From a virus: a stretch of 64,000 nt of DNA. Positions 7,010 through 61,701 of the stretch are shown one piece after another (the first letter of the stretch is position 1; each line of letters begins with the position of its first letter). The notes under the pieces are model-generated. The model was not told the DNA's origin, did not search any database, and saw nothing but the letters and a program-made list of their open reading frames with translations. The DNA lies in IMG/VR virus record IMGVR_UViG_3300032265_002113, positions 2,257 to 66,256 of that record; one strand, 5' to 3'. The position numbers and the translations under genes were made by a program.

Positions 7010-7036
7010 TCCCGCAACAACAACAAGGATGTTTCA

Positions 7037-32974: not shown

Positions 32975-34399
32975 ATGGCATCAAATCTAAACATTCTCAC
33001 AAATCAAGCAAAAGTAATCAGAGTTGAGACGGATTATTACAATCCAACAGTCAAACTCAATGGTGCTTCGATTAATTCCATATATGCTTTTATTGGCCAA
33101 GAAGATCCATGGCCAACAGTAAGTTCAAATGAAACTCCAACACAACCAACGGAAGACCAGACATATCTGAAAAAAATCTTCAAAAATATGTTTGGAGCAA
33201 AATTAATTAACTCTAGTAACATTTCACCTGTTATCCAAAGAATTAATTGGGCAAATAATACCAACTTCTTTGCATATTCTGATTCAGTAAATATGAATGC
33301 AAAAGATGCCAATGGATTTCCACTTTATAATTTTTATGTAAAGAACCGTTACGACCAAGTTTTCAAATGCCTTGCAAACAATAACGGAGGATTATCAACT
33401 TCGGAACCATATTTCCAACCAGGTTCTTATGGCACAAATAACATTTATCAAGGTGATGACTTTTATAAATGGAAATATATGTACACCATCGATGCAGGTC
33501 TCAAGAAAAACTTCTTGGATACTGATTGGATGCCTGTCCCAATTGGTGCAAACACACCTCAACCATACTTGACTACTGCTGGATGTGGAGACATTGAGGT
33601 AATCAATGTGACTAATGGAGGATCAGGTTATGATGCAGTTAACACATTTATCGTTGTTACTGTTACAGGAGATGGCACAGGAACCATTGCGAATGTAACC
33701 AGTTCACAAATAGTGGCTGGCGTAATTAAAGATGTTGTAGTTAAAGCCGGTTTTGCGGGAAATAACTATACCTATGCAAATGTTTCAATCAAAGCATATA
33801 CTTCAGCAAACTTAACTTATATTTCACCTTTGGGTTCTGGTGCAATCGCTGTAGCTCCAATTTCTCCAGTTGGTGGTCATGCATATGATCCAATCTCAGA
33901 ACTAGGTTGCAATCATGTTATGTATTCAGTTGAATTCAATGGTTCTGAAGGTGGTGTTTTGCCAACAACAGGTGTAAATTATCGTCAAGTTGGACTTCTT
34001 GTTAATCCACAAGTATATGGAATCTCCGGTCCTCTACTTGCTAATGGAGCAATTTATAACACTTCGACACAATTTTTAGTTTCTGCCGGTGCAGGAAATG
34101 TATATACTTCTGATGAGGTTGTACAACAATTCGACAATAATGGAAATGTTACATATTACGGAACTGTTTTAAATTTTAACACTTCAAGCAATTTATTACA
34201 GTTGATAAATACAAATGGAACATACACAGTTGGTCAATCAATTATTGGTTCTTCTTCTGGTGCATCAAGGGTAGTTTTCTCTGTAACTCCACCGTCACTT
34301 ATTCCATTTTCAGGATATATAACATATGTTGAGAATCGTGTCGGCGTTCAGAGAAGTAGTGATGGCATCGAGCAATTTAAATTTGTACTAGGATACTAA
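32975..34399 (+). CDS. gp8: baseplate wedge subunit gp8
   Basis: R-NW, FYV-N---VFKCL-N, D-YKWKYMYTI, P-GGH--DP--ELG, Y-ENR. Confidence 0.88.
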   Translation: MASNLNILTNQAKVIRVETDYYNPTVKLNGASINSIYAFIGQEDPWPTVSSNETPTQPTEDQTYLKKIFKNMFGAKLINSSNISPVIQRINWANNTNFFAYSDSVNMNAKDANGFPLYNFYVKNRYDQVFKCLANNNGGLSTSEPYFQPGSYGTNNIYQGDDFYKWKYMYTIDAGLKKNFLDTDWMPVPIGANTPQPYLTTAGCGDIEVINVTNGGSGYDAVNTFIVVTVTGDGTGTIANVTSSQIVAGVIKDVVVKAGFAGNNYTYANVSIKAYTSANLTYISPLGSGAIAVAPISPVGGHAYDPISELGCNHVMYSVEFNGSEGGVLPTTGVNYRQVGLLVNPQVYGISGPLLANGAIYNTSTQFLVSAGAGNVYTSDEVVQQFDNNGNVTYYGTVLNFNTSSNLLQLINTNGTYTVGQSIIGSSSGASRVVFSVTPPSLIPFSGYITYVENRVGVQRSSDGIEQFKFVLGY

Positions 34400-34408: not shown

Positions 34409-37400
34409 ATGTCTTTAAATTTCAATGTTGGTCCATATTTTGACGATTTTGACCCATCAAAAAACTTCCATCGTATACTATTTAAACCGGGTTATGCGGT
34501 TCAAGCTCGCGAATTAACACAATCACAAACAATTCTACAGAATCAAATTTCTGAATTTGCTTCCGCAATTTATTCTACAAATACACCAGTTTCTGGTGGC
34601 CAAGTCACAATTAATCAAAATTGTTATTTTATTAAATTGAATACCACTTACAATGGTGTTACAGTAACTGCTCAAAATTTTGCAGGACAAATTATTCAAG
34701 ATACAACAGGAACAATTCTTGCTAGAGTTATTGCTACGGCTGAAACAACAACCAGTGGTTCTACAGTTGGTGACCCACCAACATTGATTGTTTCTTATCT
34801 TTCAGGTGCCCAATTTACTGATGGTAGTGTTATTACAACAACCACAGGTGCAACATACTACGCTTCTGTGGCTACTTCCACAAGTACGGTTGTTAATGGA
34901 GTAACAACAACTTCACCTTCTACAGGTTTATCATCAACCGCTTCTATTGCAAATGGTGTCTTTTATGTTGTTAATGGATATTCCATTTCAAACAGTACAG
35001 GAGTCCAATATTCAATAGGTAATTTTGTTGATGTAAATCCACAAACAATCATTTTGGACAAGTATGATAACATACCTTCTTATCGTGTTGGTTTGCAAAT
35101 CACAGAAACAATTTACGATTATATAAACGATTCTTCTTTATTGGATCCTGCTATTGGTGCTTCCAACTATCAAGCACCAGGTGCAGACAGATATGTTATT
35201 ACATTAACATTGGTTACATTGCCTTTAACTTTGGGTAATGATGACAATTTCATTGAGTTAGTTCGTATTCAAAATGGTAACATCTTAAAACAAGTTGATG
35301 GTACAGTATATTCCACTATCGATGATTACTTTGCTAAACGCGATTATGAAACAAACGGCGATTATATTGTCAATGATTTCAAACTAACACCATCCGCAAA
35401 TTCAACATCAAATGCAACATATGATTTAAGTATCAGTAAAGGTATTGCATATGTTCATGGTTACAGAGTGGAAAACCAATCCGATATTAAATTAACAAAC
35501 ACAAGAGCTCAAGATGTTGCAAATATCAGCAATAATCCAGTTTATGCAGATTACGGAAATTATTTTGTTGTAGATACTTCGAATGGTATTTTTGATATTT
35601 CTACAATGCCTCAAGTTGATTTGCACTGCGTACCTGCAGCTAATATTGTTTCAACAAATACCACAACCTATTCATCAACAGTTGTTGGTACCGCATTTAT
35701 GCGAAACATAACATATGCCTCAGGTACTGGAACAACTACTAAAAATTATGTTTACAATGCATATATTTCAGATTTTTCTGCAAATACATTATCTGGAAAT
35801 GTTACTTCCGGTACTGCAACAACATTCACAATTAACGATACCAATGGTTCATTCTCAGCCACCTCTAACGCCTATTTCAATGTAACTGTTAGTATGAACA
35901 CTGGTGGTATTATCGATTTAAGAAATATCACAAGTTATAACGGCGCTTCTAAAGTGGTGAATGTCAGTTCTCCATTTACCGTAACACCGACATCAACATC
36001 AACCTTCTCTTTGATATATCAGAATTATGATGTTGAATCTATTGTTAAGACTGCTGGTTCTGGTTCATATGCATTGACGGCAAATGTGAATATAAATGCA
36101 GCTGGAGGTAAAGTTAATGGACTTGCAAATACAGATACAATATTGTATTCACAAGTTGCACCTGAAATGATATTCAAAATTGGTTATCCATATGTTGCAC
36201 AATTAACCACCACATCTTACTTTACACAAAGTGTATATCGTCAGAAAACATTCACAGGTAACACATTAACACTACAAGCAACATCAGGTAACGCAAGTAA
36301 TCCATTGAGATTTGAAGGAACAAGCACACTATCAAGTTCTGCTGCTCAACAGTTATTCATGGTTATAGATAATGCAACAGGTAATATTTTAGATTTTACT
36401 AGTTCAGGCAATACAATTTCAATTTCTTCTGATAAAACTCAAGCAACATTTACAGTTGGTTCTGGTGTAGGTACAAACAAAAATGTCACAATTATTGCAC
36501 AAGTTCAAGCAAGCAGTGGTGATTCTTCGAGTTATGTTCTGAAATCTAAGTCTCTGGTTACAGGCAATACCATAACCGTTGGTACACTTGCGGCAGTTTC
36601 TGGAACAAATTCATATCAAGACCTAACAAAAGGTCAAATTACAATCAGTAAAACAGACTTTACAGTATCTGGCAAAATGTCATTGTATGTAAATGACGTT
36701 AAGAAAATTACTAAAATTGTTGATTCGGGTGTTGCTGGTACAAACCCAACCGGTGCATTATCAAATTATACTGATGTTACTAACTATTATACATTAGATA
36801 ATGGCCAAAGAGATAATTATTATGACCATGCATCCATTTCATTGGTTGCTGGTGCGCCACCACCTACAGGAAATATTCTTGTTGTTGTAGATTATTATTC
36901 ACACACACAGGCTTCTTCGGGTGATGGATATTTCAGTATTCAATCATACAATACTTCAGGTTCAACGTATGGTGGTGTGTCGAGTTCAGCTGAAGCATAT
37001 GCACAAATTGGAACTTACACTGCTAAAAGTGGTATACAATATCCATTAAGAGATTGTATCGATTTTAGGCCTTGTCGTGTCAATGGTCAGACTGCATATA
37101 TTTGGGAATATTCAGGTACACAATCTTCTACCAACGATATTGGTATGTTGATACCTAATAATCTATCAAACTTTACAGGTTTCTATCAATACTATTTGGG
37201 TAGAAAAGACAAATTAGTATTAACAAAAGATAAAAGCTTTAACATAATTAAAGGTACACCTTCTGTTAATCCTTTATTGCCAAATGAACCATCAGGTTCT
37301 ATGATAATTGCAAATTTAATTCATGACCCATACACAGCTTATGTGCCAGGTGAAGGAACGCCAGGTGTTCCATCAAACTTATCTGTCAATAAAATTATTC

Positions 37401-39718
37401 ATAAGCGTTGGGCTAAAGAAGATATTACAGATTTAGAAACTCGTGTTAATAATTTGGAATATTATACTTCTCTGAGTATCTTAGAACAGAAAGCTAGTTC
37501 TTTACAGATTCCTGATGCTAATGGTTTAAATCGTTTCAAAAATGGTATTTTGGTTGATGATTTTTCATCGTTTGGAACAGCAGATACACAGAATCCAGAT
37601 TATGCGGCGAATATCAATGTTCGTAAAAATCAATTAACAGCATTGCAATTGGTTGACAATTTCCAATTACAAAATCCTGTTGTTCTTGCAAGTTTGGGAA
37701 CAGTAGCAAATACAAATAGTTATAGAATCAATAGTATCAATGGTGCTCAGACAAATCTATTTACTTTACCATACACAACAGAAAATGTTGCTGTTCAACC
37801 TTTAGCAAGTAGCACAGTTTCTGTCAATCCATTCAATGTTACAATACAAGAGGGCTTATTGCAAATGAACCCTCCAATGGACAATTGGGTAGATAACAAT
37901 CAAGCACCAGCAATTCTAATTACTGATCCTAATTTCCAAGTGTATCAGGCTACAACCGGTGTTAACTTATTGAACTCAGGAGATTATCAAACTATTCCTG
38001 GTACTTTAGGAACAACAAGTAGAACTAGCACAAGTTCTGTTAATAATGGTGCTTCTACAACAATCACAACAAGCACGACAACACAAACATATGCAAGTCA
38101 AATACAAAATGTTACTTCGGGCGCATATAATCCTACTTCTTCCACATTTGGAGTAAGTAATGGATATTTGACAAATATTGCACTATTGCCTTACATCAGA
38201 CCACAACAAATTATTATTCGTGCAGCTGGTTTATTGGTTAACTCAAACGTATCAACATTCTTTGACGGTGTAGATGTATCTAAATATATGACTGCACCAA
38301 ATACAATTGAATTGACTGGTGTTTCTGGAACATTCAACAATGATGATATTGTTGGTTTCTATATTGCAAACGTATTTTATCCAATTGCTCGTGTAACAAC
38401 TGTTTATTATTATACAGACACATCAAAAGTTCGTTTGTATGTTGCTGACATTATTGGTGTACCCAATTTATTAGGTTCAACAACACTAAGAAATGCAACA
38501 TTTGATTCTACAGGTAATTACTTGGCTTCTTCAGCATCTGGTACAGTAGCTTCCAGTTCCGTAATAAGCATAAGTCAAAGTGGTTCTATTAGTGGTGTTG
38601 GTGGTGGTTGGTCAAATACATTGAATGGTGGTGTTACAACACAAATATTTGGAACACCAATTGTGCAAGGTTACTCATCATTACTAAACAATTATGGTGT
38701 TTGGGGTGATGGAACCAATAGCACCTCTTTCAATTTTACTTCACCTGTTACATTCACTACTGCTGGAACATATACTATAGAAGTTGGTGCATCAGGGTCA
38801 TCTACAGTTTATGCGAATGGTACAAGCATTGGTACTTCATTATCAAGTACACCTGCATCCACAACAACTTTCACCTATACAGTATCAACTGTACCGGCAA
38901 CAGTAAAAATTGGATGGTCGGCAACAAGTTCAGGTACAACAACCTCTGCTTTTGGTATGACGATTAAAGATCCAACAAACAGCATTGTATACACCTCAAT
39001 TAATCCTCCAGTTACATATACTAATGCAGGAACTTCTGTTAATATGCCAGCAGGAGGACAATGGTTTGTAGGTGCAACTCAATTAAGATTGGATCCAGCC
39101 ACTGCGTCAAATGTTTCGACCTATTATGTGGGTTCCACCATTAATATCACATCAAAATATGTTTACAGTTTTGATGTGTCGGCAACATATGTTCCACCTG
39201 CACCAAAACCTTCCGGTGGTGGCGGCGGAGGTAAAATTATCTGTACTAAACTATATCAATTAGGACTAATGGATGAATCAATCTACAAAGCAGACCAAGA
39301 ATTTGGTGAATTGTTAAGATTGAATGATCCTGCAGCTTACTACGGATATATTCGTTGGGCTACTGTTGTTGTTGATTGGATGTCTGGTGAAGGTCCACAA
39401 TGTATGTTCTGGATTAAAGATGACAAGAAGCGTTCAGAAATTCAAGCTAAACTTGCAACAAAATGGGCTCACAGAATTGCAACACCTTGGGCTGAACACA
39501 TGGCATATGTAATGGGTAAGAGAGATAAAGATAATCTCGCTGGTAAAATTATTATGAACATTGGTAAACCAATTAGTAAAATAGTCAACTTATTACCAAG
39601 AAAAGACAAGCAAGCTGGCATAGTAACAGGTTACGGAATGTGGGCATTATTTGCTTTCTTATATACAATTAGTAAAATCTTTGGTGATAAATCATTTCCT
39701 AAGACAATAAATACTTAA
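34409..39718 (+). CDS. DUF4815/VrlC-like large virion structural protein, N-terminal part, ending in a KIICT module
   Basis: N--PYFDDFD--KNF-RILFKPG-AVQARELTQ-Q-ILQNQ, APGADR, LEYYTSL, RFKNG-LVD-F; C-terminal GGGGGGKIICT domain. Confidence 0.85.
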   Translation: MSLNFNVGPYFDDFDPSKNFHRILFKPGYAVQARELTQSQTILQNQISEFASAIYSTNTPVSGGQVTINQNCYFIKLNTTYNGVTVTAQNFAGQIIQDTTGTILARVIATAETTTSGSTVGDPPTLIVSYLSGAQFTDGSVITTTTGATYYASVATSTSTVVNGVTTTSPSTGLSSTASIANGVFYVVNGYSISNSTGVQYSIGNFVDVNPQTIILDKYDNIPSYRVGLQITETIYDYINDSSLLDPAIGASNYQAPGADRYVITLTLVTLPLTLGNDDNFIELVRIQNGNILKQVDGTVYSTIDDYFAKRDYETNGDYIVNDFKLTPSANSTSNATYDLSISKGIAYVHGYRVENQSDIKLTNTRAQDVANISNNPVYADYGNYFVVDTSNGIFDISTMPQVDLHCVPAANIVSTNTTTYSSTVVGTAFMRNITYASGTGTTTKNYVYNAYISDFSANTLSGNVTSGTATTFTINDTNGSFSATSNAYFNVTVSMNTGGIIDLRNITSYNGASKVVNVSSPFTVTPTSTSTFSLIYQNYDVESIVKTAGSGSYALTANVNINAAGGKVNGLANTDTILYSQVAPEMIFKIGYPYVAQLTTTSYFTQSVYRQKTFTGNTLTLQATSGNASNPLRFEGTSTLSSSAAQQLFMVIDNATGNILDFTSSGNTISISSDKTQATFTVGSGVGTNKNVTIIAQVQASSGDSSSYVLKSKSLVTGNTITVGTLAAVSGTNSYQDLTKGQITISKTDFTVSGKMSLYVNDVKKITKIVDSGVAGTNPTGALSNYTDVTNYYTLDNGQRDNYYDHASISLVAGAPPPTGNILVVVDYYSHTQASSGDGYFSIQSYNTSGSTYGGVSSSAEAYAQIGTYTAKSGIQYPLRDCIDFRPCRVNGQTAYIWEYSGTQSSTNDIGMLIPNNLSNFTGFYQYYLGRKDKLVLTKDKSFNIIKGTPSVNPLLPNEPSGSMIIANLIHDPYTAYVPGEGTPGVPSNLSVNKIIHKRWAKEDITDLETRVNNLEYYTSLSILEQKASSLQIPDANGLNRFKNGILVDDFSSFGTADTQNPDYAANINVRKNQLTALQLVDNFQLQNPVVLASLGTVANTNSYRINSINGAQTNLFTLPYTTENVAVQPLASSTVSVNPFNVTIQEGLLQMNPPMDNWVDNNQAPAILITDPNFQVYQATTGVNLLNSGDYQTIPGTLGTTSRTSTSSVNNGASTTITTSTTTQTYASQIQNVTSGAYNPTSSTFGVSNGYLTNIALLPYIRPQQIIIRAAGLLVNSNVSTFFDGVDVSKYMTAPNTIELTGVSGTFNNDDIVGFYIANVFYPIARVTTVYYYTDTSKVRLYVADIIGVPNLLGSTTLRNATFDSTGNYLASSASGTVASSSVISISQSGSISGVGGGWSNTLNGGVTTQIFGTPIVQGYSSLLNNYGVWGDGTNSTSFNFTSPVTFTTAGTYTIEVGASGSSTVYANGTSIGTSLSSTPASTTTFTYTVSTVPATVKIGWSATSSGTTTSAFGMTIKDPTNSIVYTSINPPVTYTNAGTSVNMPAGGQWFVGATQLRLDPATASNVSTYYVGSTINITSKYVYSFDVSATYVPPAPKPSGGGGGGKIICTKLYQLGLMDESIYKADQEFGELLRLNDPAAYYGYIRWATVVVDWMSGEGPQCMFWIKDDKKRSEIQAKLATKWAHRIATPWAEHMAYVMGKRDKDNLAGKIIMNIGKPISKIVNLLPRKDKQAGIVTGYGMWALFAFLYTISKIFGDKSFPKTINT
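39706..39713 (+). promoter_or_regulatory. late promoter-like motif before the second half of the split structural gene
   Basis: AATAAATA, same type as the motifs before gp25 and gp8. Confidence 0.5.
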
Positions 39719-39737
39719 TAAAATTTTGGAAAAATAA

Positions 39738-41939
39738 ATGACAACACTTTATCGCTCAAGTCTTTACACCTATACCGCAACCATTACGGCGTATGATCCA
39801 GTAACAAAACTGGTTACACTTGATACTCCTGTAAATTTATCTTTAGGTACAAATACACAAATGGGTGGAGACATTAGTTCTCGTTATTCTATTTCTGGCA
39901 ACTTAACTAAAATTAATTCGGCAGTACAAGCAGGAACTGCGTTAGCTAAACCATCGACAGATGAAGCTGGTAATTTTGTTGGTATTTTCAATGTTCCTTC
40001 TACAAAATTCCAAACAGGAAGTAGAGTATTTCGTGTAGATAATAGAACCGTATCTAGTGATCCATCAACAGCAACAAGTTATGCACAAGGAACATTTACT
40101 GCTTCAGGTCTTTCAACAACTTCACAAAAATTAGATTTTGCAGCTTCAATTGATTCATCTAAGTCTGTATTTACACAAGTAAATCAAAAATCAAATCAAC
40201 TAATCAGCACGGTCACAAACACAAGTTCTATTACTCTTGCTAATCCATTTGCTGGTGGTGGTGATCCTGTTTGCCAAACATTTATTGTTTCAAAAGATAA
40301 CTATCCTAATGGTATTTTCTTATACTCAATTAAATTGTTTTTCTACTCAAAACCCGGAACTAATATTCCAGTAAAACTTAGTATTTTACCTACAGTTAAT
40401 GGTTATCCTGGTGGAGCTGCTTTAGATTATTCTACAGTATTATTGCTTCCAAATCAAGTAAATACATCCAGTACACCACATTATTTGGATCCAAGTGCAT
40501 ATACAGAATTTGTTTTTGACGCACCGGTTTATATTCAATCTAATGTATTATATGGATTCATGGTTCAATCATCATCTAAAGATTATGTATTGTATTACGG
40601 TCAACAAAATCAAATAGCAGTACCGTCAACAGCAAAAGCTAATGTGAATGATGCAAATCCAACCAATCCAACAAAAATTGGTGCGGCACCTTATGTCGGC
40701 GCATTGTTTGAATCACAAAATGGTATTACATGGACTGCTGACCAAACAAAAGATTTGATGTTTGTTATTGATAAATGTGTATTCTCAACAACTTCAGCTT
40801 CTGTTCAATTTACTATTCCAAAAGGTTTGCCATTTAGAAAAATGGGTCATCAAGATATTTTGAATAAATTGGATGCAAATAGTGCTTCGCAAATATTTGG
40901 TAACTATTCACCAAGTAGAGTTTATGATGCAATGAATCTTACAACAACCGACCTTACGCCAACCGGTACAAACATCAATTATTCTTATGCCGGAACACTA
41001 AGTACAGGAAATGTACCAACAGGAACAAACTCAGTTACTCCTGGAAGATTAGGTAGTCCTTTACCTGATGACATTTATTTGAATGATGGTAATGGAGAAA
41101 GAACCCTATTGAAATATTCAAACAGTTCGTTCTCGTTGTATGCAACAATGGCAACAAGCGATCCTAACGTAACTCCAATCATTTCGGACGATGGTGTTAC
41201 GATGTATGCAATATCATATGTCATCAATAACATGGGAATTGGTAATAATGTTATATCTATTACCAATCCAGGTTATGGTTATAATGTCAATGCAACAACA
41301 ATATCAATTTCGAGTCCAGATGTTGGTTCAAATGTTGCAACATTAGGATTTACCGCAAACGCAAACGGTGCGATTACCTCCGTGTATACAATTACACCAG
41401 GTTCAGGTTATCTAACAACACCAACAATTACAATTTCGAATCCAGCTACTCGCGGAGGAAATGCAAATGCCGTGGTTACAGTAACTGGTGAAACTTCATC
41501 AAAAGGTGGTAACTCATACGCAAAATATTTCACCAAGAAAGTTGTTCTTGCACCAGGAAATGATTCAGGAGATTTGCGTGTATTCTACACTGCTTATAAA
41601 CCATTAGGTACAGCAATTTACGTTTACTATAAGATTTTGAATTCATTAGATACGGCACCATTCGAATCAGGTAACTGGCAGTTAATGACAACTATGCAAA
41701 ATCCGAATACATATTCTACGTCTAGAACTGATTTGTACGAGTATGAATGTGCTCCTGGTATTTTTGCGAGTAATCAAGCAAATAACAGCATTAGTTACAC
41801 TAGTGCAACAACTGGTCAAAAATATTCATCATTTATTCAATTTGCAATTAAAATAGTTTTAGCAACAAGTGATAATACTAATGTTCCATTCTTAACAGAC
41901 CTTCGTGCATTAGCATTACCAGCAGGAACAGGAATCTAA
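39738..41939 (+). CDS. DUF4815/VrlC-like structural protein, C-terminal part
   Basis: TD--G---G-F--P---F-TG-R-F, DP--QTF, G-LF-SQNG-TWTADQ--DL-F, FAIKIVL...DLRALAL. Confidence 0.85.
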   Translation: MTTLYRSSLYTYTATITAYDPVTKLVTLDTPVNLSLGTNTQMGGDISSRYSISGNLTKINSAVQAGTALAKPSTDEAGNFVGIFNVPSTKFQTGSRVFRVDNRTVSSDPSTATSYAQGTFTASGLSTTSQKLDFAASIDSSKSVFTQVNQKSNQLISTVTNTSSITLANPFAGGGDPVCQTFIVSKDNYPNGIFLYSIKLFFYSKPGTNIPVKLSILPTVNGYPGGAALDYSTVLLLPNQVNTSSTPHYLDPSAYTEFVFDAPVYIQSNVLYGFMVQSSSKDYVLYYGQQNQIAVPSTAKANVNDANPTNPTKIGAAPYVGALFESQNGITWTADQTKDLMFVIDKCVFSTTSASVQFTIPKGLPFRKMGHQDILNKLDANSASQIFGNYSPSRVYDAMNLTTTDLTPTGTNINYSYAGTLSTGNVPTGTNSVTPGRLGSPLPDDIYLNDGNGERTLLKYSNSSFSLYATMATSDPNVTPIISDDGVTMYAISYVINNMGIGNNVISITNPGYGYNVNATTISISSPDVGSNVATLGFTANANGAITSVYTITPGSGYLTTPTITISNPATRGGNANAVVTVTGETSSKGGNSYAKYFTKKVVLAPGNDSGDLRVFYTAYKPLGTAIYVYYKILNSLDTAPFESGNWQLMTTMQNPNTYSTSRTDLYEYECAPGIFASNQANNSISYTSATTGQKYSSFIQFAIKIVLATSDNTNVPFLTDLRALALPAGTGI

Positions 41940-46030: not shown

Positions 46031-49000
46031 ATGAAGACCAATTATACCAATTTAGGTAATCAAGAAAATAAAGAAGTTCGGGTTGCCGGAAGTTATGCTA
46101 ATAATGCATATGTCCAGGCGAATTCGGCTTATGATTCTCAAAATAGTTCTGGACTATATGCCAACACTGCATTCATAAAAGCCAATTCAGCTTATGATTC
46201 CCAAAACACTACTGGGATTTATGCAAATGCGGCTTTCTTACAAGCAAATGCAGCTTATATCCACGGCAATTCTGGTCACTCCCAAGCAAATTCTGCTGCA
46301 CTTTATGCTAATGGCGCTTTCATACAGGCAAACGCTGCCTACATCAGCCAAAACACAACAGGCATATATGCAAACAGTTCATTTACTAAAGCAAATTCAG
46401 CTTACGATAGCCAAAACGTAACTGGCACCTACGCCAATTCGGCTTACTATACAGCTAACTCAGCTCAACTGTATGCCAATGGAGCTTTCGTTCAATCTAA
46501 TGCAGCTTACTATACGGCCAATTCAGCACAGTTATATGCTAATGGTGCCTTTGCACAATCAAATGCATCTTATTATACTTCGAATTCGGCACAACTATAT
46601 GCTAATGGAGCTTTCATTCAAGCAAATGCAGCATTTAATTCTCAGAACGTAACCGGTACCTATGCTAACTCGGCATATTACACATCTAACTCAGCTCAGT
46701 TATATGCCAACGGTGCCTTTATTCAAGCCAATGCATCTTACAATAGCCAAAATGTAACAGGCACTTATGCTAACTCAGCATATTATACTGCCAATTCCGC
46801 TGGAGTATATGCTAACGGTGCTCTCGTACAAGCAAATGGAGCTTATAATAGTCAAAACACAACAGGCATCTATGCTAACTCCGCATATGCACAGGCTAAT
46901 AGTGCATCACTATATGCAAATGGTGCTTTTGTACAAGCCAATGCGGCTTATGGTTCACAGAATGTAACAGGCACTTATGCCAATTCTGCATATCTAGCAG
47001 CTAATAATGCAAATTCTAACGCAATAACATCTGGTGCATATGCTAATAGTGCTTTTCTACAGGCAAATGCAGCATTTATATTTGCCAATTCAATATCCAG
47101 TACACACAACACCGCAATTGCCGCGGCCTTTGCACAAGCAAATGCGGCATATGCTTCTCAAAATGTAACTGGTACATATGCCAATTCAGCATACTATACC
47201 GCCAATTCAGCTCAGTTATATGCCAACGGTGCCTTTATTCAAGCCAATGCATCTTACAATAGCCAAAATGTAACAGGCACTTATGCTAACTCTGCTTACT
47301 TTACTGCAAACTCAGCTCAGTTATATGCCAATGGAGCTTTTATTCAGGCCAATGCTGCATACGGTTCCCAAAACGTAACCGGTACCTATGCTAACTCGGC
47401 ATATTTGGCCGCGAATAATGCAAATGCAAATGCGATAACATCTGGTGCATATGCTAATGGTGCTTTTGTACAAGCTAATGCCGTTTTTATATTTGCCAAT
47501 TCTGTTATCGCTAGTCATAATGCCAGTATTGCAGCGGCATTCTCTCAAGCTAATGCTGCTTATACATCACAGAATGTAACTGGCACATACGCTAATTCAT
47601 CATACTATACTGCAAACTCGGCACAACTATATGCTAATGGAGCTTTCACTCAGGCAAATGCTGCATACGGTTCCCAAAACGTAACAGGTACATACGCTAA
47701 TTCAGCTTACTTAGCTGCCAACAATGCCAACGCTAACGCAATAACAACAGGTACATATGCTAATGGTGCCTTTGTTCAAGCTAATGCATCATTCAATATT
47801 GCAAATTCAGCTTCACTATACGCTAATGGTGCCTTTGTACAAGCTAATGCAGCTTATGCATCTCAAAATGTAACTGGTACCTATGCTAATTCAGCATATC
47901 TAGCAGCTAATGGTGCCAATGCTAATGCAATAACTACTGGTACATATGCCAATTCAGCATATTACACCGCAAACTCAGCACAACTATATGCTAATGGAGC
48001 ATTCACACAAGCCAATGCATCTTATGGTTCTCAGAACGTAACTGGTACATATGCTAACTCTGCTTACTTAGCTGCCAATGGTGCCAATGCAAATGCAATA
48101 ACAACAGGCACATATGCTAACTCTGCATATTTGGCAGCTAATAACGCTAATGCCAACGCAATAACCTCTGGTGTATATGCCAACGGAGCATTTGTACAAG
48201 CTAACGCAGTATTCATATTTGCTAATTCTGTATTTAATACTCAGAACACCAGTATAGCGGCCGCGTTTATTCAAGCAAATTCAGCTTACTCTAGCCAAAA
48301 CGTAACTGGTACATACGCTAACTCGGCGTATTTGGCTGCCAATAATGCTAATGCAAATGCCATAACAACAGGCACTTATGCCAACTCCGCGTATGCACAG
48401 GCTAATGGTGCAAGTTTATATGCTAATGGTGCTTTTGTACAAGCCAATTCTGCATATGGTTCTCAAAATGTAACTGGTACATATGCCAATTCAGCATATC
48501 TAGCAGCTAATGGTGCCAACGCTAATGCAATAACTACAGGAACTTATGCCAATTCAGCATACTATACTGCAAATTCAGCTCAGTTGTATGCAAACGGTGC
48601 ATTCACTCAAGCTAATGCCGCATACAATAGTCAAAACGTAACTGGTTCATATGCAAATTCAGCTTACTTAGCTGCCAATGGTGCCAATGCGAACGCTATT
48701 ACTACTGGCACATATGCTAACTCAGCATATTACACCGCCAATTCAGCTCAGTTGTATGCTAATGGTGCTTTTGTACAAGCCAATGCGGCTTATGTATCAC
48801 AGAATGTAACAGGTACTTACGCCAATACTGCACTTAGTTTTGCTAACTCAGCTGGGTCATATGCAAATTCTGCGTTCTTGAAAGCTAATAATGCTTTACC
48901 TTTGGCAGGCGGAACAATTACAGGCAATTTAACCATTGTCCAAGATGCAACAATTCAAGGTAACTTGACTGTATTAGGTACTACTACAACAACCAATACT

Positions 49001-51991
49001 GAATCTTTTACTGTAAAAGATACTTTGATATTATTGGGTTTAGGAAATTATTACTCAGATGCATTAGATATTGGTTTTGCTGCACATTATAATAATGGAA
49101 CAAACGCACACACAGGTTTTTTTCGAGATTCAGATACAAAAGAATGGAATATATTTGAAGGTTATACACCAGAAGTATCACCTAATAACAATATTATAAT
49201 TACGGATCCTTCTTATAGAAATGCAAATCTTATAGCAAATACTGTAAAAGCAAATGTCATAGCCAACACAATATATGTTAGTGGATATAATGTATTCACA
49301 TACATCACAAATGCATACACACAGGCAAATGCAGCTTACATAAGTCAGAACACGACTGGTTCATATGCCAACTCAGCCTACTATACGGCGAATTCGGCAC
49401 AACTATATGCTAATGGTGCCTTTATACAGGCAAATGCAGCTTATGGTTCTCAGAATGTAACCGGCACTTATGCTAACTCTGCTTACTTTACTGCAAACTC
49501 AGCTCAGTTATATGCCAATGGAGCTTTCGTACAATCAAACGCCGGATTTAATGTTGCAAACTCAGCATCGTTATATGCCAATGGTGCATTCGTACAAGCT
49601 AATGCGGCTTATGGTAGTCAGAATGTAACAGGCACTTACGCCAATTCTGCATACCTGGCAGCCAATGGCGCGAATGCAAATGCTATTACTACTGGCATCT
49701 ATGCTAACTCCGCATATGCACAAGCTAATGGTGCAAGTCTATATGCTAACGGTGCCTTCGTACAAGCTAATGCAGCTTATGGTAGTCAAAACGTAACTGG
49801 TACCTATGCCAATTCAGCTTACTTAGCAGCTAATGGTGCCAACGCTAATGCAATAACAACAGGTACATATGCCAATTCAGCATATGCTCAAGCTAATGGT
49901 GCAAGTCTATATGCTAATGGTGCCTTTACTCAAGCAAATGCCGTTTTTATATTTGCTAACTCAGTATTCACTACACACAATACCAGTATTACGGCGGCAT
50001 TCACCCAAGCAAATTCAGCTTATGCATCACAAAATGTAACTGGTACATATGCCAATTCGGCATATTTGGCTGCTAACAATGCCAATGCAAATGCAATAAC
50101 AACAGGTACATATGCCAATTCAGCTTATTTGGCAGCCAATGGTGCAAATGCCAACGCAATAACATCTGGTGCATATGCTAACTCGGCATACCTAGCAGCT
50201 AATAATGCAAATGCTAATGCAATAACAACAGGCACATATGCAAATTCAGCTTACTTAGCGGCCAATGGTGCGAATGCAAATGCTATTACTACTGGCACAT
50301 ATGCCAATTCAGCATATGCACAAGCCAATAGCGCAAGTCTATATGCTAATGGTGCATTCGTACAAGCTAATGCGGCTTATGGTTCTCAAAACGTAACTGG
50401 TACCTATGCCAACTCTGCATATTTGGCGGCGAATAATGCCAATGCTAATGCAATAACATCTGGTGTTTATGCTAATTCGGCATATGCACAAGCAAATGGT
50501 GCTTCGATATATGCTAATGGCGCCTTTGTACAAGCTAATGCAGCTTATGCGTCACAAAATGTAACCGGTACATATGCAAATTCAGCTTACTTAGCGGCCA
50601 ATGGTGCGAATGCAAATGCAATAACAACAGGTACATACGCTAATTCAGCTTACTTAGCTGCCAACAATGCCAACGCTAACGCAATAACAACAGGTACATA
50701 TGCTAATGGTGCCTTCGTTCAGGCTAATGCCGTTTTCATATTTGCTAACTCGGTATTCACTACACACAATACAAGTATTTCAGCAGCATTTACTCAAGCA
50801 AATTCAGCTTATGGTTCTCAGAACGTAACTGGCACTTATGCCAACTCTGCTTACTTAGCAGCTAATGGTGCCAACGCAAATGCTATTACTACTGGAACTT
50901 ACGCTAACTCGGCATACTATACGGCCAATTCAGCACAACTATATGCTAATGGTGCATTCGTACAAGCTAATGCGGCTTATGGTTCTCAAAACGTAACAGG
51001 CACATACGCTAACTCAGCTTATTTGGCAGCCAATGGTGCCAATGCAAATGCAATAACAACTGGCACCTATGCTAACTCTGCATATCTAGCAGCTAATAAT
51101 GCAAATGCTAATGCGATAACATCTGGTGCGTATGCTAATTCCGCATTTACTCAAGCTAATGCAGTTTATATATTTGCTAACTCGGTATTCACTACACACA
51201 ATACTAGTATTTCAGCTGCGTTCACGCAAGCAAACTCAGCTTATGGTTCTCAAAATACTACAGGAATTTACGCCAATGCCGCATATGTAGCCGCTAACTC
51301 AGCAGGTGTATATGCAAATGGTGCTCTAGTACAGGCCAACGGTGCTTTCAGTTCTCAGAACGTAACTGGAATTTATGCTAATGCAGCTTATTACACCGCA
51401 AATTCAGCACAACTTTATGCCAATGGTGCTTTTGTACAAGCAAATGCGGCTTACACTGGTCAAAACGTAACTGGAACTTATGCTAACTCCGCATACTACA
51501 CCGCGAATTCAGCACAACTTTATGCTAACGGAGCTTTTGTACAAGCAAATGCGGCATTCAATACTCAAAATGTATCTGGTTCATACGCTAACTCGGCATA
51601 CCTAGCAGCTAATAATGCAAATGCAAATGCGATAACATCTGGTGCTTATGCCAATTCCGCATTTACTCAAGCTAATTCTGCTTTTTCATCTTCTAACGGA
51701 ATTAATTTAACACAGAATACCAGTATTACGGCGGCATTCACTCAAGCTAATTCTGCTTACGGTTCACAAAACACAACAGGCATTTATGCGAATGCGGCAT
51801 TTATTCAAGCAAATGCGGCTTATGCGGTTGCTAATGTTGCGGCTACTCCATTAGTTCTTATTAACAGCACATATATAACCAGTAATGTAACAATTGCAGC
51901 AAATACAAATGGACTCTCTGTTGGACCTTTAGCGATTGCTAATAGTTACTATGTCAATGTCGCAAGCGGCCAGCGTTGGATAATTTTATAA
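46031..51991 (+). CDS. giant heptad-repeat fibre protein (1986 aa)
   Basis: Two long blocks of xANxAxx heptads around a globular insert; C-terminal SVGP...SGQRW domain. Confidence 0.85.
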   Translation: MKTNYTNLGNQENKEVRVAGSYANNAYVQANSAYDSQNSSGLYANTAFIKANSAYDSQNTTGIYANAAFLQANAAYIHGNSGHSQANSAALYANGAFIQANAAYISQNTTGIYANSSFTKANSAYDSQNVTGTYANSAYYTANSAQLYANGAFVQSNAAYYTANSAQLYANGAFAQSNASYYTSNSAQLYANGAFIQANAAFNSQNVTGTYANSAYYTSNSAQLYANGAFIQANASYNSQNVTGTYANSAYYTANSAGVYANGALVQANGAYNSQNTTGIYANSAYAQANSASLYANGAFVQANAAYGSQNVTGTYANSAYLAANNANSNAITSGAYANSAFLQANAAFIFANSISSTHNTAIAAAFAQANAAYASQNVTGTYANSAYYTANSAQLYANGAFIQANASYNSQNVTGTYANSAYFTANSAQLYANGAFIQANAAYGSQNVTGTYANSAYLAANNANANAITSGAYANGAFVQANAVFIFANSVIASHNASIAAAFSQANAAYTSQNVTGTYANSSYYTANSAQLYANGAFTQANAAYGSQNVTGTYANSAYLAANNANANAITTGTYANGAFVQANASFNIANSASLYANGAFVQANAAYASQNVTGTYANSAYLAANGANANAITTGTYANSAYYTANSAQLYANGAFTQANASYGSQNVTGTYANSAYLAANGANANAITTGTYANSAYLAANNANANAITSGVYANGAFVQANAVFIFANSVFNTQNTSIAAAFIQANSAYSSQNVTGTYANSAYLAANNANANAITTGTYANSAYAQANGASLYANGAFVQANSAYGSQNVTGTYANSAYLAANGANANAITTGTYANSAYYTANSAQLYANGAFTQANAAYNSQNVTGSYANSAYLAANGANANAITTGTYANSAYYTANSAQLYANGAFVQANAAYVSQNVTGTYANTALSFANSAGSYANSAFLKANNALPLAGGTITGNLTIVQDATIQGNLTVLGTTTTTNTESFTVKDTLILLGLGNYYSDALDIGFAAHYNNGTNAHTGFFRDSDTKEWNIFEGYTPEVSPNNNIIITDPSYRNANLIANTVKANVIANTIYVSGYNVFTYITNAYTQANAAYISQNTTGSYANSAYYTANSAQLYANGAFIQANAAYGSQNVTGTYANSAYFTANSAQLYANGAFVQSNAGFNVANSASLYANGAFVQANAAYGSQNVTGTYANSAYLAANGANANAITTGIYANSAYAQANGASLYANGAFVQANAAYGSQNVTGTYANSAYLAANGANANAITTGTYANSAYAQANGASLYANGAFTQANAVFIFANSVFTTHNTSITAAFTQANSAYASQNVTGTYANSAYLAANNANANAITTGTYANSAYLAANGANANAITSGAYANSAYLAANNANANAITTGTYANSAYLAANGANANAITTGTYANSAYAQANSASLYANGAFVQANAAYGSQNVTGTYANSAYLAANNANANAITSGVYANSAYAQANGASIYANGAFVQANAAYASQNVTGTYANSAYLAANGANANAITTGTYANSAYLAANNANANAITTGTYANGAFVQANAVFIFANSVFTTHNTSISAAFTQANSAYGSQNVTGTYANSAYLAANGANANAITTGTYANSAYYTANSAQLYANGAFVQANAAYGSQNVTGTYANSAYLAANGANANAITTGTYANSAYLAANNANANAITSGAYANSAFTQANAVYIFANSVFTTHNTSISAAFTQANSAYGSQNTTGIYANAAYVAANSAGVYANGALVQANGAFSSQNVTGIYANAAYYTANSAQLYANGAFVQANAAYTGQNVTGTYANSAYYTANSAQLYANGAFVQANAAFNTQNVSGSYANSAYLAANNANANAITSGAYANSAFTQANSAFSSSNGINLTQNTSITAAFTQANSAYGSQNTTGIYANAAFIQANAAYAVANVAATPLVLINSTYITSNVTIAANTNGLSVGPLAIANSYYVNVASGQRWIIL
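46090..51840 (+). repeat. degenerate 21-nt-unit coding repeat array (interrupted ~48880-49310)
   Basis: Units YANSAYY/TANSAQL/YANGAFV/QANAAYG/SQNVTGT/AANNANA/NAITTGT with synonymous variation. Confidence 0.9.
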
Positions 51992-52000: not shown

Positions 52001-54142
52001 ATGAGCACAATATCAACAGGAACATTACTCACAACAGCATTCGTAGTAAAGTCAGATTTATCTGGTACTTTACAGATACAAACTGGTGCCAGTTCAGCTA
52101 ATGCAGTCTATATCGATTCAAGTCAGAACGTGGGTGTTGGTAATATTTCTCCGAGCGCAAAGCTAGATGTAACTGGCAATATATTGCTTTCTGCTTCAAA
52201 CCCCTTACTTCGGTTTAACGCAGGTGGCCCGCAGCTTTATGTTACGGTAGGCAACACACTACAGTTTTCAATGAATGGTGGCGGAAGTGAGGCCATGCGT
52301 ATTGACAGCAACGGCAATTTAGGTATTGGTACTTCTTCACCATCAGTGAGGCTAGATGTTCAAGATACAGCCGCAATTGCAAGAGTTACCTCAACTACAG
52401 GAACAAACGCAGTAAGGTATCAAGTAATAAATACTGGAGGAACATCACAATTTGGTAGAGAATCAAGTGGTGGTGGAACAATACTATCCGGTGCAGATGG
52501 TTATTCAACTGTACTAACAGGTGCGGGCGCATATCCAATGGTGTTTGGCACAAACTCCGCAGAGCGTATGCGTATTGATTCTAGCGGCAACGTGGGGATT
52601 GGTGTTACACCTAGTGCTTGGCTGTCAACTGTAAAGGCAATTCAATTAAGTAATAGAGCTTCCATTTATACAGATTCAAGTGGAAACACTATTGTTGGTA
52701 ACAATTCGTTTGTTAATAGCAGTAGTCAAGACACTTATTTACAAACAGCACAAGCATCAGCTTATTTGCAAGGTGCTGGTCAACATAAATGGTACAACGC
52801 CCCATCAGGCACAGCAGGAAACGCAATAACATTCACCCAAGCAATGACACTGGATGCGTCTGGTAATTTGGGGATTGGTACTACTTCGCCTGTAACCAAC
52901 TTGACTATTTCTAGTGCATCCGCTGCAACAGGTGGTGATGGCACTCAATACGTCCAAGCTATATATACAGGCACAGGAACTACTAACGCAGGATACACCA
53001 CCAAAAACTATTACGGCACTTCCCAGTTTTTCCAATGGAACAACAACGGCACGCGCCTAGGCAACCGCATTATTACAAATAGTGGAAGTGGTGCTTTAGT
53101 ATTTACCTATGGCAATGATTCCGAGGGTATGCGTATTGATTCTAGCGGCAACGTGGGGATTGGGACTAGTTCGCCTATTGGAAAACTTGATATTAGTGCT
53201 GGCTCGTCAAACACAGCTTTTGCAGTTACATCAAATTCAAACGGTAGTTTGCCATCTGCAACGCCATCGGGTTTAGTTATTGGCCAAAACTACGGAGGTG
53301 GTTCTGCTGGTTCCGCTGAAATAGATTTTATTTTTAACTCATCAACGTATGTTGGTGACAACGGCGGATTTAGGTTTTACCAAAGAACAGGCGCGTCTAC
53401 TGTGAATGAAATGATGCGTATGACGCAAAATGCGTTGTATATGTATACCGGCGGCACAGAACGTATGCGTATTGATTCTAGTGGCAATGTGGGAATTGGT
53501 ACAGGTTCGCCAATACGGAAGTTGACCGTTTCTACTGCCGGTTCCTGTGAATTCGTATTGCAAGATAGTTCACAAGGAACAGATTCTAAAAATTGGCGCA
53601 TTTTTAACACTGGCGCACAAATGTATCTTGGTACACTAAATGATGCTGGATCAGCGGGTACTGATGTAATGATTATGGATCGAACTGGCCGTGTTAGAAT
53701 GCCAAATCAACCATATTTACACGCAACAGTCAATTCTGGCGTGGCTGGACCTAATTTTTCAGTTCATAATACTGTTACTATACCATACAATTCTATTATT
53801 ACAAACACTGGAAATTATTTTAATACGTCAACGTATACGTTTACTTGTCCGGTAGCAGGAGTATATCTTGTATATGCTTCAATTCAAATTGGTAGTATGC
53901 AAGGAACAAGTGGTGTTGGACCAAATTTCCAAATTGTTAGGAATGGTACTGTTATAACAGGGACATATAATTTCATACTAACGGGTACAGGATATCAAAA
54001 AGAAGAAGGCACTGCATATGTAAAATGTGCTGCTAATGATACATTATATGTAAATTATTATACTGGTAGTGCCATGACTGGTGGTGGCGCTGAATTTAAT
54101 GGTGATGTAAGAAATGCTTTATGTATTGCATTTATAGGATAA
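52001..54142 (+). CDS. fibre tip protein with C-terminal C1q/TNF-like domain
   Basis: MRIDSSGNVGIG repeats; NTG-YFN-STY-FTCPVAGVY C1q-like motif. Confidence 0.8.
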   Translation: MSTISTGTLLTTAFVVKSDLSGTLQIQTGASSANAVYIDSSQNVGVGNISPSAKLDVTGNILLSASNPLLRFNAGGPQLYVTVGNTLQFSMNGGGSEAMRIDSNGNLGIGTSSPSVRLDVQDTAAIARVTSTTGTNAVRYQVINTGGTSQFGRESSGGGTILSGADGYSTVLTGAGAYPMVFGTNSAERMRIDSSGNVGIGVTPSAWLSTVKAIQLSNRASIYTDSSGNTIVGNNSFVNSSSQDTYLQTAQASAYLQGAGQHKWYNAPSGTAGNAITFTQAMTLDASGNLGIGTTSPVTNLTISSASAATGGDGTQYVQAIYTGTGTTNAGYTTKNYYGTSQFFQWNNNGTRLGNRIITNSGSGALVFTYGNDSEGMRIDSSGNVGIGTSSPIGKLDISAGSSNTAFAVTSNSNGSLPSATPSGLVIGQNYGGGSAGSAEIDFIFNSSTYVGDNGGFRFYQRTGASTVNEMMRMTQNALYMYTGGTERMRIDSSGNVGIGTGSPIRKLTVSTAGSCEFVLQDSSQGTDSKNWRIFNTGAQMYLGTLNDAGSAGTDVMIMDRTGRVRMPNQPYLHATVNSGVAGPNFSVHNTVTIPYNSIITNTGNYFNTSTYTFTCPVAGVYLVYASIQIGSMQGTSGVGPNFQIVRNGTVITGTYNFILTGTGYQKEEGTAYVKCAANDTLYVNYYTGSAMTGGGAEFNGDVRNALCIAFIG

Positions 54143-55052: not shown

Positions 55053-56879
55053 ATGGCATCTACAATTTCAGCAGGAACAACTAGCGCTACGGCAATGGTA
55101 TATACAGCAGACACATCTGGTGTCTTGCAGTTAGCTAGTAACAATGGCACTACAGCAATTACTGTAGACACAAGCCAGAACGTGGGTATTGGTACTACTG
55201 GGCCTTTATCTACTCAATCTAACCGCATTTATCTGTCACTAAAAGGCACAGGAACTGCCGCAGGAACAGGGCTAGGGGTTTTACAGTTTCAAACCAATGC
55301 TGCTGGTTCTACAGGACCAAATATGGGAAATATCGAGTGGGATTTGCCTGACAATTCGGGGTCAACGTCTCTAAGATGTTCTTACATAAGCAGTTCAGTG
55401 GAAGGGTCAACCGCAAACAATCGTGGTTCTAACATGTCATTTGCCACCAAGCCAGATGGTGTCAGTAGTGCAGGCGCCGAGGCAATGCGTATTGACTCAA
55501 GCCAGAATGTTGGTATTGGCACTACTTCACCTAACGGCATTAGACTTAATGTTGATAGCGCTGCTTTAAACACATCTACTGCTTATATTAAAAACAATGG
55601 CGCTTTACCCGACAACAATGACAACTCTGCTTTGTATGTTAATCATGCTGGCACTGCTGGAACAGGATTCCGTGTTCGCACAGACCAAGCATTAACAGGC
55701 ACAAACTTTGCTCACATATTAATCAACAACGCCAGCGCAAGCATTAACGGACTGCAAGTATCGCAGTATGGAACTGGATGGATTGCCAATTTTGATAAAA
55801 GCGGAACATCTGCTTTCTTTATTGGCAATAACAGCAAAGTTGGAATTGGCACTACTTCGCCAGGCGCAAACCTTGAGGTGAAAGGCGCATCCGGTCAAAA
55901 TATTTATGTGTCCTACACGAGCGGTTCGCAACTGCGTTTGAAATCGGATTCAGGTGATTCTGGTGTTGGCACTACTGGCTCGACGCCATTGTTGTTTTTG
56001 ATAAACAACGGAGAAGTTGGGCGTTTTGACACTAGTGGCAATTTGGGAATTGGTACTTCCGCTTTGTCCGGGTACAAGTTGTGCGTTGGGAACACATCTT
56101 CGGTGACCACACTAAACGGCGTTGGTTTGACTTTATTTACCTCTGGTAGCCTAACATCTAATATTGGCGGCGTATTGAACTTTAGACCGGGTCTTGGTCA
56201 AACTGCCAGCGACATTTTTAACTTGTCCATCTGTGCGTATGACCATAGCGGTGATACAAATACGGATGGATTAAGCATAAACGGCTATGACGGTATTTCT
56301 TTTTGTACAGGTAGTAATGCTCGAAACGAGCGTATGCGCATTTCTGGAAATGGCGATATAGTTATAATGAATGCCCTAACAGGCGGAACAGGAGCACTTT
56401 TTGTCGGCAGACAAACAACCATTGCAAACGGCAGAATTGAGGCAACTGGCAATGACAATATAATGGTTACTAATCAAACTGATACTGGATCTGGCGCAAA
56501 AAATATTCTTTACATTCTGAGAAATACTAATTACGTTGGCGGCATCACTTGTACTAATACAACTACTTCTTTTCCAACATCATCTGACTACCGCCTAAAG
56601 CAAGACATTGCGCCGATGACTGGCGCATTGAACAAAGTTGCCGCGCTGAAGCCTGTTACCTACAGGTGGAAGTTGGATGGTTCTGATGGTGAAGGCTTTA
56701 TTGCCCATGAATTGGCGGAGGTATGCCCCCATGCTGTGACAGGTGCGAAAGACGCTGTAGATGAAGATGGCAATCCCAAGTACCAAGGCATTGATGTATC
56801 GTTCCTCGTTGCTACCCTTACCGCAGCAATCCAAGAACTCAAGGCAGAATTTGATGCCTACAAAGCATCTCATCCGTAA
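55053..56879 (+). CDS. fibre tip protein with S74-like intramolecular chaperone
   Basis: VGIGT repeats; SSDYRLK...GFIAHEL...P-AV-G-KD...L-AAIQEL. Confidence 0.85.
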   Translation: MASTISAGTTSATAMVYTADTSGVLQLASNNGTTAITVDTSQNVGIGTTGPLSTQSNRIYLSLKGTGTAAGTGLGVLQFQTNAAGSTGPNMGNIEWDLPDNSGSTSLRCSYISSSVEGSTANNRGSNMSFATKPDGVSSAGAEAMRIDSSQNVGIGTTSPNGIRLNVDSAALNTSTAYIKNNGALPDNNDNSALYVNHAGTAGTGFRVRTDQALTGTNFAHILINNASASINGLQVSQYGTGWIANFDKSGTSAFFIGNNSKVGIGTTSPGANLEVKGASGQNIYVSYTSGSQLRLKSDSGDSGVGTTGSTPLLFLINNGEVGRFDTSGNLGIGTSALSGYKLCVGNTSSVTTLNGVGLTLFTSGSLTSNIGGVLNFRPGLGQTASDIFNLSICAYDHSGDTNTDGLSINGYDGISFCTGSNARNERMRISGNGDIVIMNALTGGTGALFVGRQTTIANGRIEATGNDNIMVTNQTDTGSGAKNILYILRNTNYVGGITCTNTTTSFPTSSDYRLKQDIAPMTGALNKVAALKPVTYRWKLDGSDGEGFIAHELAEVCPHAVTGAKDAVDEDGNPKYQGIDVSFLVATLTAAIQELKAEFDAYKASHP

Positions 56880-61530: not shown

Positions 61531-61701
61531 ATGATTCAATACAAATTACAAAAGGGTTCATTTGGTGATGTTGTTGCTGTAACGATTATTGGACAGAATA
61601 TTAGTATTCCACTAGTTGAAGGTAACTCCGACTACCAGCAATACCTTGCATGGCTTGCAGAGGGCAACACACCACAACCCGCGGATGAGGTAACACAATG
61701 A
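61531..61701 (+). CDS. small fibre chaperone-like protein
   Basis: IP---GNSDYQ-YL-W-AEGNTP-PAD motif; ATG at 61531. Confidence 0.7.
   Translation: MIQYKLQKGSFGDVVAVTIIGQNISIPLVEGNSDYQQYLAWLAEGNTPQPADEVTQ

Follow-up and report, generated by a model that had tools for sequence, protein, structure and literature searches.

A VrlC baseplate gene in two pieces in a freshwater T4-like phage, the first piece ending in a probably exchangeable C-terminal module

The window analysed here, the whole stretch of 64,000 nucleotides (nt) taken from the IMG/VR virus record IMGVR_UViG_3300032265_002113 (positions 2,257 to 66,256; a 66-kb record with a completeness estimate of 40%), belongs to a freshwater, T4-like phage whose baseplate gene vrlC is split into two open reading frames (ORFs), the first of which ends in a domain that we refer to as the KIICT module. 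The gene order in the window is T4-like and runs from wedge genes through a gp8-like gene (32975-34399) and the split vrlC to fibre genes. According to the ORF list and its translation, the first vrlC gene (34409..39718, + strand) encodes the N-half, a protein of 1769 amino acids (aa; P0001) that includes a hinge and the KIICT module, and it is located directly 3′ of the gp8-like baseplate wedge gene, the same synteny as in syn9 and P-SSM7. The second vrlC gene (39738..41939, + strand) encodes the C-half of 733 aa (P0002), as indicated by its match to the phrog_358 profile and by its alignment to the unsplit homologue P0158. P0001 matched Pfam DUF4815 (PF16075) with E=1e-58 and 199.5 bits against a cut-off of 30, and the phrog_358 profile runs through both pieces in order, with P0001 covering positions 5-1274 and P0002 positions 1278-1608. 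The host gene thus belongs to the DUF4815/VrlC group both by its PF16075 match above the cut-off and by its place after the gp8-like gene.

Together, the two window genes form a homologue of the VrlC/DUF4815 baseplate proteins in the usual place after gp8; however, this homologue is a single chain in the Synechococcus phage syn9 (gp105, 2391 aa) and in the Prochlorococcus phage P-SSM7 (094, 2534 aa), whereas in the window it is split and an extra module is added to the first piece. In the passages on VrlC of the cited papers, T4 gp7 is said to be replaced by VrlC in cyano- and pelagimyophages, and VrlC is tied to double-layered baseplates (PMC7029224, PMC4621102). The passages on VrlC in the baseplate literature contained no mention of a split or an end-module, and a text search of the literature on DUF4815 gave nothing on either.

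The sequence statements and coordinates of a preliminary description of this DNA, made from the letters alone, were found to be exact when read against the sequence, the ORF list and the translations. The first ORF reads ...ASNVSTYYVGSTINITSKY...PPAPKPS-GGGGGG-KIICT, with the K of KIICT beginning at position 39233, and is closed by the double in-frame stop TAATAA (39716..39721, + strand), which was read directly from the sequence. The second ORF starts at 39738 in a different frame, 19 nt beyond the end of the first, and reads MTTLYRSSLYTYTATITAYDPVTKLVTLDTPV. By searching for longer relatives of P0002 we obtained unsplit proteins with lengths of 2332-2338 aa, which share 80-82% identity with the first piece and 84-85% with the second. 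Residues 1-1607 of P0001 align with residues 1-1599 of these unsplit homologues, and residues 5-733 of P0002 align with residues 1606-2332 (P0158, 85% identity) or 1606-2338, so that only 4 residues of P0002 are without a match. The unsplit junction reads ..INITSKYVYKFNTSATYVPPPQLPSGGAGG-LTLKNG-YRASLYNYTATITAYD..., and the junction in the window reads ..INITSKYVYSFDVSATYVPPAPKPSGGGGGG-[module, TAATAA, 19 nt, M]TTLYRSSLYTYTATITAYD... At the DNA level, window positions 39240-39756 (517 nt) stand in place of 16 nt in the unsplit locus L041, while other unsplit relatives have a short hairpin at the break site and no hinge. The alignment with unsplit homologues therefore defines the ends of the insertion (~517 nt versus 16 nt) and places the break at the tip of a β-hairpin in a small domain, which bears out the earlier proposal that it falls inside one β domain; the complex model described below agrees with this placement.

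The split is common to seven IMG/VR contigs with module identities of 96-98%, and both junctions are bridged by contigs from three other metagenome runs, two of them from other studies. Hence, it is not an error of one record. No contig with a joint that skips the insert was found among the contigs of four metagenome runs. One RNA run contributed a single 182-nt contig that lies inside the second gene only, possibly represents DNA carry-over and is uninformative on transcription of the module.

To model the two chains as a complex we used residues 1400-1600 of P0001 and residues 1-140 of P0002 with our own alignments of 17 rows each. The resulting model reached an ipSAE of 0.74, compared with 0.00 for the best of 3 controls; in calibration, 58 of 80 solved complexes attained this ipSAE mark, as did 2 of 110 mismatched pairs, figures that apply only roughly given the use of our own alignments. 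The model runs share at least 87% of contacts, and the predicted local distance difference test (pLDDT) score of the partners was at least 58. The predicted interface involves the strands of the split β domain from the first chain (P0001 residues 1546-1591, 39044..39181, + strand; chain 1 interface residues 147-164 and 167-192) and those from the second chain (residues 1-55, 39738..39902, + strand; chain 2 interface residues 1-21, 23-28, 30-42, 46 and 48-55), with the nearest contacts between VGSTINIT of chain 1 and YTYTATIT of chain 2, which are antiparallel. This prediction supports an interaction of the two VrlC chains through the broken domain and makes the suggestion that two chains rebuild one fold a plausible one. 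The preliminary description had also argued from an intact earlier copy of the same repeat in the protein. An unbroken small domain does exist there (35858..35977, + strand, from residue 484 onward), but its likeness to the split domain was marginal in a shuffle test: its score of 37 against the C-side piece was matched by 84 of 2000 shuffles, and its score of 25 against the N-side piece by 734 of 2000, leaving the internal-repeat argument weak on sequence grounds.

The left edge of the inserted cassette is a Pro/Gly hinge, PPAPKPSGGGGGG (39194..39232, + strand), which is common to split relatives with the cassettes A, B and C described below, to some with a short tail (D) and to the unsplit L041/P0157 type. 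The length of its Gly run varies, and an extra GGC codon after 39220 was seen in contigs of two freshwater runs and in loci of the L036 type. We classified relatives of the N-half by their ending, considering the best 120 of 210 matches to the end of the first half. Among these 120, 33 end in the KIICT module (ending A), 29 in a different module of ~118 aa starting with C-V-V-A-T-A/E-L (B), 16 in a domain with Pfam Hint matches that starts GG|CF, lacks a C-terminal HN and is followed by a helical tail (C), 21 in a short, often Trp-rich tail (D) and 5 in a low-complexity tail of 62-90 aa, while 16 are unsplit. Thus, 104 of the best 120 relatives end at the break seen in the window, and 71 of these 104 do so without KIICT (29 with the other module, 16 with Hint, 26 with a tail only). 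A similar mix was found in 32 viral loci (9 A, 10 B, 2 C, 4 D and 7 unsplit). An S74 domain at the hinge was seen neither in the best 120 N-half relatives nor in these 32 loci. Profile comparison of modules A and B gave a probability of 0.45%, with no detectable relationship. In an unrooted tree of 24 C-halves, no fewer than 9 changes of cassette state are required, the possible minimum being 4; the well-supported clade of the window holds A, B and unsplit forms, and the sister rows L057 and L059 differ in cassette. Trp- and aromatic-rich tails after the hinge, such as ..GGWWSWSDWF and ..NWFNQRGWW, occur in module-less VrlC first halves of several lineages (the short-tail proteins P0290-P0371; L052, L055 and L057).

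The right edge of the cassette is the 19-nt spacer with a GGA (39728-39730) that precedes the second gene (39719..39737). Of the 17 loci compared, 13 have its sequence, GGAAAAATAAATGACAAC, or a near variant ahead of the second gene irrespective of the cassette type, with L055, L056, L057 and L066 differing, and GGAAAAATAAATG of the spacer also occurs before another gene at 19558. Because the hinge and the start region of the second gene are common to the cassette types, the cassette lies between two conserved edges. The sequence AATAAATA (39706..39713, + strand), located within the last codons of the module, contains ATAAATA 25 nt before position 39738, a motif that also stands before the second gene in loci with other cassettes. 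We call it promoter-like because it resembles the T4 late promoter consensus. The + strand of the window has 20 copies of ATAAATA and the - strand has 3 (e.g. 8460, 19523, 39707, 44875 and 45676), and 7 of the 20 + strand copies are found 8-45 nt ahead of an ORF start, in keeping with a T4-type late promoter core. Judged by these signals, the second vrlC gene looks like an ordinary late gene that is expressed on its own.

The KIICT module itself (39233..39715, + strand) comprises 161 aa, belongs to no named family and was predicted by AlphaFold to be all-helical, with six helices (pLDDT 88.6; predicted template modelling score, pTM, 0.82). Its residue 4 is a Cys (codon 39242..39244, + strand) that was found in all 134 of the 134 family representatives whose match reaches the start of the module; further invariant columns are D21, G25, G38, Y39, W86, M90, G104 and G111, and the His of the motif PWAEHMAY is swapped for E or Q in several family members. 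Near its end lies a hydrophobic helix (module residues 128-146, 39614..39670, + strand; helix 130-150 in the model), which is moderately hydrophobic with a Kyte-Doolittle mean over 19 residues (KD19) of 1.45. In the family, a KD19 of at least 1.6 was reached within the last 45 residues of 92 of 150 representatives. The position of the helix would be consistent with a tail anchor, in which one transmembrane helix lies no more than ~30 residues from the C-terminus. The module had no match in Pfam, PHROG or NCBIfam, a search of the protein atlas returned viral hypothetical clusters only, a search of BFVD only uncharacterised members of the same family, and a Foldseek comparison of the model with PDB gave 0 matches at E<=1e-3. 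None of the NCBIfam models of C-terminal signals (CFI-box-CTERM and others) matched module A, module B or the downstream partner proteins at E<=1. In agreement with the earlier remark that the window copy bears no Hint signature, no Hint family was detected at E<=0.1 and the model consists of six helices. A match to YibX (E=0.08) was discarded as chance, and the NEL E3 ligase domains of the IpaH/SspH type (SspH1, SlrP), the best candidates in the wide VIA comparison (Z 5.6, root-mean-square deviation 3.8, 106 aligned residues), were set aside, as this value lies below the noise level of the tool for helical proteins.

A full HMMER scan of 1.84 billion representatives revealed the module as a large recurrent family of 731 clusters (50% identity) at E<=1e-3, of which 266 remain at E<=1e-10. 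In 146 of the best 150 matches the module ends no more than 30 residues from the C-terminus, and in the other 4 it ends 31-60 residues from it. The 15 residues before the module (n=134) are Gly-rich in 76 cases, Cys-rich in 11, Pro-rich in 4, hydrophobic in 5, Hint-like (..VHN) in 3, of another kind in 34 and too short in 1. The carriers range from ~150 to 1859 aa; among them are Gly_rich_2 proteins, He_PIG repeat proteins, several proteins of the DUF4815 group and one gp5-OB-like hub. There are also proteins in which KIICT is fused immediately behind a Hint domain that ends in VHN. Within DUF4815 proteins, KIICT also ends first halves near residue 1280-1300 of the syn9 protein (L029, P0028, P0030, P0042), and a further KIICT break lies just before the conserved DPxAQSF stretch, ~170 residues into P0002 (L028, P0034). 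The module had previously been called mobile, and this holds in the sense that it recurs, moves between genes over evolutionary time and occurs at more than one break in DUF4815 proteins. A single peptide pattern searched in the genomes of 185,579 cellular species returned only 5 loci, 4 of them on short contigs of metagenome-assembled genomes, which is a weak negative; by the distribution of its sequences, the family appears to be essentially phage-only. A literature search of main texts found no paper on it. We define a large domain family with an invariant Cys that is without a name in Pfam, NCBIfam and PHROGs.

Several arrangements of the module in other phages are worth recording. Asn-Cys repeat linkers (CNCNCNC..) stand directly before it in 11 of the 134 representatives (P0010, P0032, P0033, P0036; L024, L026, L032). 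In the 392-aa protein P0013, a gp5-OB-like hub or spike protein (Gp5_OB E=0.006, below the cut-off), a poly-Pro linker is followed by the module at the end, and in SynMITS9220M01_028 of a Synechococcus phage (L001, 6669-8519), a Gly_rich_2 protein of 616 aa, the module follows ~35 prolines and 8 arginines. Behind SynMITS9220M01_028 lies a small conserved ORF whose NC[IV]IYNA motif recurs in the downstream ORFs of L015-L025. In the Gly-rich-protein contexts of L015-L020 (ORFs ~6369-7298), the gene after the KIICT gene ends in a divergent KIICT-like domain (E ~1e-10), and in L021 two adjacent genes (3719-4780 and 4771-6453) both have the module at their end.

We consider it reasonably probable that the KIICT module is an exchangeable C-terminal end-module carried on a hinge within a gene in pieces, the halves of which reassemble non-covalently. 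The first gene would pass from the hairpin tip through the Pro/Gly hinge into an exchangeable end-module, here KIICT, and finish with two stops, and the remainder of VrlC would be made from a second late gene that begins 19 nt further on and has a ribosome-binding site and a promoter-like motif of its own. Both products may then rejoin without a covalent bond by strand pairing over the broken hairpin. In all cases seen, the KIICT family follows a flexible linker and closes baseplate, hub and fibre-like proteins at their C-terminus. The hinge cassettes would have been swapped, shortened or lost many times, probably via recombination that uses the conserved codons of the hinge on one side and the conserved region at the start of the second gene on the other. 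We infer that the module could serve as a tethered device at the periphery of the baseplate that binds the membrane or the cell envelope, and not as a ligating element; such a role is favoured because of its Trp-rich helices, the frequent hydrophobic end helix in the family (92/150) and the Trp-rich short tails at the same place.

A number of points weigh against this account. The complex model is a prediction from our own alignments. With a KD19 of 1.45 the window tail falls below the usual 1.6, and 30 of the 150 family matches stop short of the tail. The tree, being unrooted, allows either insertion or loss as the direction of change. Furthermore, the invariant Cys right behind a flexible linker appears to fit poorly with a simple anchor and better with a processing site, and the Hint domains that occupy this hinge in 16 of the best 120 relatives, or stand directly before KIICT elsewhere, suggest an end-piece that is meant to come off.

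These last points lead to the main rival of an exchangeable, tethered end-module, a self-processing or cleavable assembly aid similar to an intramolecular S74 chaperone of fibres or a Hog domain, which would be synthesized with the first half, assist in assembly or localization and then be cut at or near the invariant Cys, leaving a mature baseplate without the module. The invariance of this Cys (134/134) behind a flexible linker is in line with it, as are the Hint cassettes of sister phages, which share the GG|CF start of Hedgehog and pass into a helical tail without a C-terminal HN, the Hint domains ending in VHN that would release the KIICT module fused behind them, and the C-terminal Peptidase_S74 domains in two fibre genes of the window. 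Moreover, BIL and Hog Hint domains cleave without splicing, according to the section on them in PMC7765530. On the other hand, the module has no conserved catalytic set, the His in PWAEHMAY being replaced by E or Q in several members, and no fold match to a known autoprotease in Foldseek or VIA; the K-I-I before the Cys is conserved as part of helix 1, unlike an intein junction, and short-tail forms without the module are still split. Overall, we regard a cleavable role as unlikely, though deserving of attention. A bolder version would make KIICT, and perhaps also the unrelated, Cys-led module B, a new Cys-dependent autoprocessing C-terminal domain that cuts at the junction of linker and Cys without a Hint fold, in the manner of the Hog-like Hint cassette in sister phages, and that might transfer the C-terminus thus created on the baseplate protein to a lipid of the membrane or to some other acceptor; this we rate as rather improbable.

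Decidedly improbable, too, is a delivered membrane-active effector on virion proteins, comparable to the C-terminal domains of polymorphic toxins or evolved spikes, which might for instance breach or depolarise the host envelope. Its appeal lies in the occurrence of the module only at the C-terminus of baseplate, hub (the gp5-OB-like P0013) and fibre-like proteins, in the "releasing" Hint domain upstream in some members, in the variability of the cassettes and in the common hydrophobic helix. However, the module resembles no toxin or pore-former (Foldseek gave none in PDB at E<=1e-3, and the VIA Z of 5.6 lies within helical noise), the downstream gene in the window is the other half of VrlC, and elsewhere the downstream "partner" has its own divergent copy of the module, which fits ill with an immunity gene.

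The preliminary description had proposed a trans-ligating, intein-analogous element that would rejoin both chains covalently without a Hint fold. The break inside one domain and a conserved Cys behind a Gly linker are what such an element would call for, but 71 of the 104 relatives ending at the break are split there without KIICT, which is one of the findings that the preliminary description had itself named as refuting its proposal, and the module is always at the end of a chain, here closed off by a double stop. Moreover, P0002 matches the unsplit homologues from residue 5, so there is no C-terminal splicing partner; the 4 unmatched residues of the second gene leave no room for one. In the search for intein and Hint features, neither a Hint fold or its blocks in the module nor a complementary splicing piece at the start of the second gene was found. 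With these relatives split in the absence of KIICT, and with no space for a splicing partner, we regard a ligating role of the intein-like kind as very unlikely, and this part of the proposal is not supported. A self-splicing intron was rejected as well: when 38000-41000 was compared with Rfam at E<=1, a chance match to mir-2 was the sole result, and the insert is a conserved in-frame protein domain. Finally, a decaying or mis-assembled gene, in which the stop and the frame change would be damage or an assembly error, has nothing in its favour beyond the bare fact of a stop in a gene family that is usually one chain and is scarcely credible, as both ORFs are intact and keep 60-90% identity over many contigs, contigs from other metagenome studies bridge the arrangement and the module is a conserved family of 731 clusters.

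The organization preferred here, an end-module on a gene in pieces, can be set beside several known systems. Genes of T4-like phages that are split by homing endonucleases have a similar gene-in-pieces layout. The "fractured genes" of phages, in the passages describing them (Dassa et al. 2009, PMC2677866), are alike in that inserted DNA with a stop and a restart divides a conserved phage gene into two neighbouring ORFs, with function presumably kept by reassembly. In contrast to both, there is no endonuclease gene between the halves in the window and the spacer measures only 19 nt; compared with fractured genes, split-intein halves are lacking, translation of the insert gives the first piece its C-terminal domain, and the host gene is structural and not a DNA-metabolism enzyme. 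The Peptidase_S74 chaperone domains (PF13884) of phage fibres and spikes are likewise modular C-terminal end-domains on virion proteins. Two fibre-like proteins of the window, at 55053-56879 (608 aa) and 61698-63554 (618 aa), carry a C-terminal Peptidase_S74 (E=5e-13 and 7e-12), so this phage also uses a classical cleavable end-module; the same search that detects PF13884 in these two genes gave no match for the KIICT module, which further differs by its invariant Cys near the start.

CFI-box-CTERM, GlyGly-CTERM and MYXO-CTERM are C-terminal sorting signals. Signals of the CFI-box-CTERM type and the module have in common a Gly-rich stretch, a motif with Cys, a helix that is hydrophobic, though only moderately so in the window copy, and a C-terminus ending in basic residues, but the module has a folded domain of ~130 aa before the helix instead of a short signal and is without an NCBIfam match at E<=1, and its carriers are phage virion proteins made in the cytoplasm. 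The likeness to the Hog/Hedgehog and BIL Hint domains, as far as the relevant section of PMC7765530 describes them, lies in the relatives' Hint domain (GG|CF start, helical tail) exactly at the hinge and in the Hint before KIICT elsewhere; the window module differs in being all-helical with no Hint match.

The locus presents a structural phage gene that is broken without an endonuclease or intein, in which the stop comes with a translated end-module and a conserved restart region lies behind it. One hairpin tip of the main baseplate protein is a hot spot where at least 4 kinds of ending are exchanged among close relatives, which points to a site under diversifying pressure that is probably host-facing. 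If the module were an anchor, this would bear on how double-layered baseplates engage the cell, and if it were self-processing or lipid-directed, it would offer a new tool of protein chemistry. Two further genes downstream of the split vrlC were recorded. An ORF of 1986 aa (46031-51991) in the fibre region gave no Pfam match at E<=1e-3, and the adjoining gene (52001-54142) encodes a protein of 713 aa that ends in a C1q domain (E=8e-8) and probably forms a receptor-binding tip.

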